8,952 nucleotides of DNA from a virus (IMGVR_UViG_2627854008_000013); one strand, 5' to 3'. Shown: positions 2,465-2,714, counted from the stretch's first letter. Translations and numbers: made by a program. The notes: a model not told the origin generated them from the letters alone.

Positions 2465-2541
2465 TGGCGCGTTCTACTGTATTCGAACCAGTGACCGATT
2501 GCTTAGAAGGCAATTGCTCTGTCCGGCTGAGCTAACAACGC
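2465..2541 (-). tRNA. tRNA-Arg, anticodon UCU (reads AGA/AGG), 77 nt with encoded CCA
   Basis: Reverse complement folds as a cloverleaf: GCGTTGT / TA / GCTC-AGCCGGACA-GAGC / A / ATTGC-CTTCTAA-GCAAT / CGGTC / ACTGG-TTCGAAT-ACAGT / AGAACGC / G / CCA. Anticodon stem is perfect; non-canonical pairs at 6:67 (G.G) and 53:61 (G.A). Confidence 0.65.
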
Positions 2542-2554
2542 AGGATACAGATAA

Positions 2555-2631
2555 TGAACCGCCTTCGGGGACCCGAACTCCGCGCAACCAGCTTCGAAGG
2601 CTGGCGCTCTTTCCTGATGAGCTAATGGCGG
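2555..2631 (-). tRNA. tRNA-Arg-like, anticodon UCG (reads CGA); CCA not encoded (TCA in its place); possibly degenerate
   Basis: Reverse complement: CCGCCAT / TA / GCTC-ATCAGGAAA-GAGC / G / CCAGC-CTTCGAA-GCTGG / TTGCG / CGGAG-TTCGGGT-CCCCG / AAGGCGG / T then TCA. Anticodon arm is perfect; mismatches at 6:67 (A.A) and 52:62 (A.C); the 3' end is uncertain. Confidence 0.5.
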
Positions 2632-2638
2632 TATGTGA

Positions 2639-2714
2639 TGGTGGCCCTTGCTGGATTTGAACCAGCGACCTGGCGATTATGAGTCGCTCGCTCTCACCAC
2701 TGAGCTAAAGGGCC
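2639..2714 (-). tRNA. tRNA-Ile2 (anticodon CAU, lysidine type, reads AUA) or tRNA-Met; 76 nt with encoded CCA
   Basis: Reverse complement GGCCCTTTAGCTCAGTGGTGAGAGCGAGCGACTCATAATCGCCAGGTCGCTGGTTCAAATCCAGCAAGGGCCACCA. Acceptor and T arms are canonical, anticodon loop is CTCATAA. It closely resembles E. coli ileX-type tRNA as I recall it. Confidence 0.85.

Follow-up and report, generated by a model that had tools for sequence, protein, structure and literature searches.

The three tandem tRNA genes in the stretch of viral DNA analyzed here (8,952 nucleotides, hereafter the window) are, judged by homology and gene order, the known and widely annotated ileZ-argN-argO rare-codon tRNA cluster of Stx-type lambdoid prophages, in a copy in which ileZ is intact and both arginine tRNA genes are probably impaired. 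Because argN and argO of related phages are canonical, the oddities of the two window genes are derived, allele-specific lesions and not traits of the family, and the gradient of lesions on which they lie ends in clear pseudogenes. The cluster reveals no new element type.

The cluster and its ileZ gene

ARAGORN called three tRNA genes and no others in the window; each is encoded on the minus strand (2639-2714, anticodon CAT; 2556-2632, TCG; 2465-2541, TCT). All three exceed the gathering score of the Rfam model RF00005 (29 bits), with 72.5 bits for ileZ (E-value 8.8e-15), 43.4 bits for argN (9e-07), and 53.4 bits for argO (1.6e-09), and these matches are far beyond chance. The initial annotation, made from the sequence alone, had described a tandem minus-strand trio with the anticodons CAU, UCG, and UCU for the codons AUA, CGA, and AGA/AGG, which ARAGORN and RF00005 both confirm. 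It had also considered that both Arg genes might score below a covariance threshold for pseudogenes; with the Rfam model, both lie above 29 bits. Positions are numbered below in the Rfam register, which was chosen as the one that fits the canonical relatives and in which argN spans 2631-2555. The three genes are as follows:

2639..2714, minus strand: ileZ, a tRNA-Ile2-type gene with anticodon CAU and encoded CCA (ARAGORN, Rfam, ileX alignment, IMG/VR comparison)
2555..2631, minus strand: argN, tRNA-Arg(UCG), degenerate allele (ARAGORN, Rfam, Stx2a phage alignment, cloverleaf energy)
2465..2541, minus strand: argO, tRNA-Arg(UCU), degenerate allele with encoded CCA (ARAGORN, Rfam, alignments, cloverleaf energy)

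Over the 381-base region around the cluster, 289 phage records are 80-95% identical to the window; Stx2-converting phages make up most of them, and the tRNAs annotated there are a tRNA-Ile (or Met) and two tRNA-Arg. The annotation of AP012534 names the genes ileZ, argN, and argO and places them between Q and stx2A, so the comparison with the Stx-phage genes that had been suggested at the outset is well founded. The genome papers of 933W and O157 Sakai reportedly use the same names. Together with its flanks (2100-2900), the cluster is matched in 3261 of 5426 complete E. coli genomes, at up to 15 places per genome. Membership in the cluster is supported by the tandem CAU-UCG-UCU order and homology to the AP012534 genes, and by a location in the late region, 3' of Q, 5' of the cargo, and on the same strand.

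Most likely, ileZ is the sole fully credible tRNA of the window cluster. In the alignment it is identical to K-12 ileX at 68 of 76 positions and far less similar to metT, and it keeps C4-G69 and C5-G68, the TilS determinants, at two pairs where metT differs. Its 6:67 pair is U6-A67 in place of the C6-G67 of ileX, a compensatory change. Because of the likeness to ileX, the retained TilS pairs, and the distance from metT, we regard ileZ as an Ile2-type tRNA and not a tRNA-Met; it has every feature by which a tRNA-Ile2 was defined here (CAU, C4-G69, C5-G68, and nearer to ileX than to metT). ARAGORN labels the CAU tRNA as Met. Of the 113 sampled IMG/VR loci, 90 share one and the same mature sequence, another 10 differ at one variable-loop position, and the RF00005 score is 72.5 bits in every allele compared. 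The initial annotation had called this tRNA canonical, which holds for the near-universal bases (U8, A14, G18, G19, U33, G53, T54, T55, C56, A58, and C61, all present) and for the CCA, but not for pair 27:43, an A27.C43 mismatch that is invariant across alleles (ileX has G27.U43).

Genomic context of the window

Around the tRNA genes, the following features were identified:

8299-8952, minus strand: IS transposase gene (rve, integrase core), abutting the prophage genes near 8292 (Pfam)
4377..4772, minus strand: late antiterminator Q gene, which defines the late operon of the tRNAs (Pfam PF06530, E 1.6e-52)
4308-4288, minus strand: terminator-like hairpin just 3' of Q, a tR'-like candidate (consensus scan)
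2764..3813, minus strand: N6/N4 DNA methylase gene, immediately 5' of the tRNAs (Pfam PF01555, E 1.4e-43)
2433..2450, minus strand: candidate terminator-like hairpin and T run directly 3' of argO (consensus scan)
2185..2389, minus strand: STnc100-family sRNA (Rfam RF02076, 139.5 bits)
1..1695, minus strand: NanS-p-like esterase gene (SASA and DUF6645), the first downstream late gene (Pfam PF03629, PF20350)

On the minus strand, the order 5' of the tRNAs is integrase-core (IS), PerC, Dam, RusA, KilA-N, DUF968, Q, a small ORF, and the methylase; 3' of them follow the STnc100 sRNA, a DUF1737 ORF, and the NanS-p-like esterase. The esterase ORF encodes 564 aa, with its ATG at 1695 and a stop codon that ends at base 1, and a 564-aa gene is also called at matching Shigella loci. 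The consensus scan placed further terminator-like hairpins after the small ORF and at the STnc100 end.

Compared with Stx2 phages (933W, Sakai Sp5, and relatives), the window has the same gene order, strand, anticodons, and site between Q and cargo/nanS-p, and their ileZ is 100% identical to that of the window; over the region as a whole, identity is 90-95%. They differ from it in that stx follows the tRNAs (in AP012534 the order is tRNAs, stx2A, stx2B, STnc100), whereas the window, a lambdoid late-regulatory region, lacks stx, continues directly with STnc100 and the esterase, and has the methylase between Q and the tRNAs. Their argN and argO are canonical; the window copies are structurally damaged alleles. 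In the window, STnc100 comes directly after argO, where Stx2 phages have stx2AB plus STnc100/AsxR; a 2026 preprint linked STnc100 to PasD sRNAs. The arrangement of methylase and tRNAs is the same in E. coli 700462.

GCA_900457245.1 shares 8292 nt with the window at 100% identity, and CP001063, which we take to be Shigella boydii CDC 3083-94, is 99.98% identical to it. Among complete E. coli genomes, none matches the window over its full length; the best match there covers 90% at 92% identity and is mosaic. The methylase is identical in several NCBI assemblies, with IS elements flanking the region in all of them, and Dam, KilA-N, Q, or the esterase is split or frameshifted in some sister strains. 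From the IS flanks, the split genes, and the mosaic partial E. coli matches, we infer that the window is a prophage remnant. Relative to the otherwise identical locus L124, ~1 kb is absent beside the IS (an ORF of 74 aa and the greater part of an HTH_36 gene), which suggests an IS-adjacent deletion in the window strain.

Lesions of the window argN and argO alleles

None of the three genes has fully paired 7/4/5/5 stems, with one mismatch in ileZ and two each in argN and argO; canonical argN and argO alleles have no stem mismatch. In the Rfam alignment, both Arg genes are mismatched at 6:67 and in the T stem and have fully paired anticodon arms, exactly as first described. Both also break a near-universal position (G58 in argN, A61 in argO). 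The G58 and U73 of argN and the A27.C43 of ileZ had gone unmentioned in the initial annotation.

In argN, the mismatches are A6.A67 (2626/2564) and A52.C62 (2579/2569), and position 58 is a G (2573), where A58 is almost universal in tRNAs. Pair 6:67, which is also broken in the window argO, is the site of the commonest argN mismatch (A.A). At 2557-2555 the gene reads TCA where its relatives encode CCA, a substitution that had been spotted before; an encoded 3' CCA is the rule for all E. coli tRNA genes, and ileZ and argO have it. Aligned with argN of Stx2a phages, which has A6-U67, G52-C62, G51.U63, A58, and CCA, the window allele shows eight differences, including G52A, A58G, U67A, and C74U. 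Canonical alleles score 54-58.4 bits with RF00005, against 43.4 for the window, and their cloverleaf-constrained energies are -28.3 to -31.3 kcal/mol, against -20.0 (a loss of 8-11 kcal/mol). Folding against shuffled controls gave a z of -1.0 for the window allele, -1.06 for the Stx2a allele, and ~-2.4 for the best canonical allele (L083); the window argN and argO thus both fold no better than their shuffled controls. An alternative hairpin that is the minimum free energy (MFE) structure of the window allele (U54-A67...G58-C63) gains no support from covariation of A58G and U63C, since A58 together with C63 is common among alleles.

The discriminator of argN is U73 (2558) in every allele seen, canonical ones included, and that of argO is G73; a purine discriminator (A73/G73) is a minor identity element for ArgRS. 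The base at -1 of argN (2632) is an A that can pair with U73, and ARAGORN starts the gene one base before Rfam does. A scan for the anticodon arm in one genome per species identified no bacterial donor of argN, with E. albertii and two doubtful MAG contigs as the only carriers. We name no donor because even the closest tRNA-Arg(UCG) genes on chromosomes, from Terriglobia and Planctomycetota, are identical to argN at no more than 59 of 77 positions.

In argO, the mismatches are G6.G67 (2536/2474) and G53.A61 (2488/2480), the latter in place of G53-C61, a near-universal T-arm element. Canonical argO (Stx2a phage, E. coli 700462) aligns with G6-C67 and G53-C61 and is fully paired; from the Stx2a gene, the window allele differs by C61A, C67G, and A37 for G37. 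The RF00005 score is 53.4 bits in the window versus 68.1-70.1 for canonical alleles, the cloverleaf-constrained energy is -15.6 versus -22.0 kcal/mol (a loss of 6.4), and the shuffled-control z is -0.5 versus ~-2.4. K-12 argU has the D, anticodon, and T loops in common with argO and differs in the stems by compensatory pairs, without the two broken pairs of the window allele; argU and ileX are host genes, whereas argO and ileZ are phage-borne paralogues. Both window Arg genes have A20, C35, and G36/U36, the major identity elements of E. coli ArgRS (A20, C35, G/U36). MFE folding is weak on its own, and we used cloverleaf-constrained energies because MFE fails to give a cloverleaf even for canonical ileZ and Stx2a argN.

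Sequencing or assembly errors in one record have a negligible chance of explaining the odd bases. The 301-nt cluster is identical in seven of eight independent assemblies with the same methylase, the exact argN-argO haplotype is present in 23 complete E. coli genomes, including strains of the O104:H4 outbreak lineage, and an allele-specific scan found the argO double mutant in 15 IMG/VR contigs. This explanation is therefore ruled out.

Overall, the lesions cost 11-17 covariance bits and 6-11 kcal/mol of cloverleaf energy relative to canonical alleles. Substitutions have broken 6:67 in both genes, 52:62, 53:61, A58, and the encoded CCA, and we favor relaxed selection on argN and argO as the most likely reading. 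Both genes would then be hypomorphic or non-functional and heading to pseudogenes, a loss of function that we infer from the sequence comparisons. Against this reading, E. coli can restore a CCA that a gene does not encode, as it does for phage T4 tRNAs. Like those T4 tRNAs that lack an encoded CCA, the window argN would need 3' trimming and CCA addition by the host; in T4, absence of the CCA is normal and functional, whereas in the window argN it arose when a point mutation hit an encoded CCA on a damaged allele.

Among 238 IMG/VR copies of argO, stem changes preserve wobble pairing or are compensatory, except at 6:67, at 53:61, and in two singletons. Three different substitutions (G6U, G6A, C67G) disrupt 6:67 in these copies, giving U.C, A.C, or G.G, and this pair may simply tolerate mismatches. 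Pair 53:61 is disrupted in none of them unless C67G is present as well; C61A and C67G always co-occur. That the recurrent breakage of 6:67 is a tolerated or selected feature and the damaged-looking Arg alleles are working variants strikes us as improbable; if selected, it might tune processing, handling by EF-Tu or ArgRS, or escape from host nucleases directed at tRNAs.

Allele turnover and decoding

A search of IMG/VR with the argN anticodon arm yielded a sample of 113 loci, among which 29 full-length alleles of argN occur. Its copies are fully paired in 73 of 112 cases and have at least one broken pair in the other 39; A52/A67 lesions occur in 23-24 of the 112, G58 in 31, and TCA in 9. For argO, 73 of 93 full-length copies are fully paired, and six, the window included, carry C61A and C67G. 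In the allele-specific scan, 109 IMG/VR contigs, some of them 40-50 kb long, carried the T arm/acceptor of degenerate argN, with TCA in a subset. Degenerate argN is also the best match in ~835 E. coli records, 812 of which fall in the 95-99% band; among the matches listed, those at 98.2-98.8% fit degenerate argN with canonical argO. In E. coli alone, this comparison registered 6221 argN-argO places.

These alleles form nested states that run from canonical argN with canonical argO, through degenerate argN with CCA and degenerate argN with TCA, to the addition of the argO double mutant, as in the window, and finally to locus L048, where a further lesion leaves argN at 38.1 bits. TCA is found only on argN alleles that are already damaged, and every window-type argO copy with a readable argN has a degenerate argN background. 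E. coli 700462 combines the window argN allele with a canonical argO.

A scan anchored on ileZ reached 66 loci beyond those found through argN patterns. In 26 of them, the second slot is occupied by a garbled argN missed by ARAGORN, in four by an argN without its anticodon arm, and in 17 by a tRNA that is homologous to argN but has a UUU anticodon arm; other contents are argN/argO chimeras and one UCG-to-UCU switch. Class A pseudogenes of argN (L310, L337, L308) keep the acceptor, the D arm, and the 3' T stem, with the anticodon region replaced and the T loop damaged, and class C pseudogenes (L311, L314, L338) have the anticodon arm deleted; ARAGORN calls neither class. At 13 loci, argO is truncated or replaced, being cut after the anticodon loop in seven and of different sequence in six. 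The cut gene is joined to unrelated sequence in, for example, L097, L259 (E. albertii), and L034; the replaced ones include L057 and L058, and L329 is an argN/argO chimera. At related loci, recombination or deletion junctions thus fall in the tRNA genes. Given the pseudogenes, the swaps, and the 13 argO losses, the Arg slots, argN foremost, are dispensable and often lost.

The UUU variant arm (UCAAC-CCUUUAA-GUUGA, e.g., in L326 and L309) is called tRNA-Lys(UUU) by ARAGORN, has C33, and is accompanied by a compensatory 7:66 change; at some of these loci, tRNA-Thr(UGU) and tRNA-Gly(UCC) come next, in place of argO. Known anticodon nucleases attack tRNA-Lys(UUU), so that an anti-defence role for this variant is conceivable.

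Heterozygosity across the 113 loci is 0.010 for ileZ and 0.077 for argN, in line with relaxed constraint on the argN slot. The 250-nt cluster, spacers included, stays at 0.01-0.10 amid mosaic flanks at 0.30-0.36, which would fit Arg tRNA-like units that are kept for a role other than decoding. They could act as RNase P/E processing sites at which the methylase and cargo messages are parted, as a homology anchor for swapping stx and sRNA cargo modules, or as spare tRNAs that escape tRNA-targeting nucleases of the host. The variation of the cargo after argO from phage to phage, the junctions inside argO at the 13 loci, and the UUU anticodon-arm swap in some relatives point the same way. Spacer conservation is, however, equally explained by recent common descent, canonical alleles look like ordinary decoders with compensatory stem changes, and the window genes have nothing unusual in their anticodon loops; we consider such a role very improbable. 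Within the degenerate lineage, the rate at which argN gains variants was not found to exceed that of ileZ or argO; diversity is low throughout, and selection and recent descent are inseparable in this comparison.

A consensus scan found no sigma-70 promoter 5' of ileZ on the minus strand, and this result, together with the terminator-like hairpins, suggests that the tRNAs derive from a Q-antiterminated late transcript processed by host RNases. If the phage is active, the three tRNAs would be excised from this transcript and would supplement the decoding of AUA, CGA/CGG, and AGA/AGG, which phage cargo (stx2A, for example) over-uses; with C34 modified to lysidine, the ileZ tRNA would decode AUA. 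Codon usage, a check suggested at the outset, fits the usual model of supply to the cargo, with 15 AUA and 6 AGA in the 320 codons of stx2A. In the esterase adjoining the cluster, AUA, AGA, AGG, CGA, and CGG are rare. Across the window ORFs, these five codons are used at 4-9 per 1000. The lambdoid phages SfI, Sf6, ST64T, and P21 carry Asn/Thr tRNA genes 3' of Q, for which a codon top-up role was proposed (PMC3636060); they occupy the same position as the window cluster but are different tRNA species of unrelated sequence.

The arginine tRNAs of K-12 have the anticodons ACG, CCG, UCU, and CCU. A UCG isoacceptor was said at the outset to lie outside the normal host set, in line with a preprint according to which argN5, a tRNA-Arg(UCG) gene of O157:H7, is absent from BL21; carried on pRARE2, this gene of the same family and anticodon supplies an Arg decoder that the host lacks (10.1101/2025.08.20.671396). 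The copy on the commercial pRARE2 plasmid is reportedly the O157:H7 gene; the O157-type Stx2a phage allele is canonical, whereas the window allele has four further defects. tRNA-seq of pRARE2 cells detected argN5 as fragments only (10.1101/2025.08.20.671396), which casts some doubt even on canonical argN. Speculatively, pairing between -1 and 73 could shift RNase P cleavage and might relate to this fragment-only signal.

Several observations count against simple decay and would agree with three functional genes whose 6:67 mismatches, A.C, G.A, G58, and TCA are tolerated and which supply decoders to the lysogen or to late genes. ARAGORN calls both Arg genes, their Rfam scores exceed gathering, and PGAP labels both as tRNA-Arg, without a pseudogene flag, in the identical haplotype of O104:H4. 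That haplotype is not confined to remnants: in E. coli O104:H4 2009EL-2071 (L305; NC_018661 2155733-2173900) it lies in a stx-less lambdoid prophage that retains lysis, terminase, and portal genes and is apparently complete. A nucleoid-associated-protein gene pair is inserted there between Q and the tRNAs. Further support comes from the breadth of the haplotype (the 23 complete genomes and 15 contigs) and of degenerate argN (the ~835 records), the intact anticodon arms and Arg identity elements, the lack of an excess of argN variants in the degenerate lineage, the recurrence of 6:67 mismatches, which suggests tolerance, and the use of AGA, AGG, CGA, and CGG by the window ORFs. Yet G53-C61 and A58 are near-universal T-arm elements. 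The window alleles also fall short of canonical ones by the bits and kcal/mol given above, and the lesions accumulate stepwise on one lineage in which ileZ is unchanged. Moreover, argN pseudogenes are common in the same slot, and even canonical argN5 was seen as fragments only (10.1101/2025.08.20.671396). On balance, we regard full function of all three genes as rather doubtful and retain impairment of argN and argO by relaxed selection as the preferred reading.

The practical consequences are modest. The cluster was already known, and the added result is that its Arg genes carry derived, allele-specific lesions on a gradient to pseudogenes. Even so, rare-codon tRNA annotations in prophages are not reliable at face value. 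In a matching Shigella remnant and in O104:H4, two of three annotated tRNAs have lesions at near-universal positions, and estimates of tRNA complement or codon adaptation in which such genes are counted may overstate decoding capacity. The unequal constraint within the cluster, with a near-invariant ileZ beside an argN slot in fast turnover, bears on the purpose of phage tRNAs.
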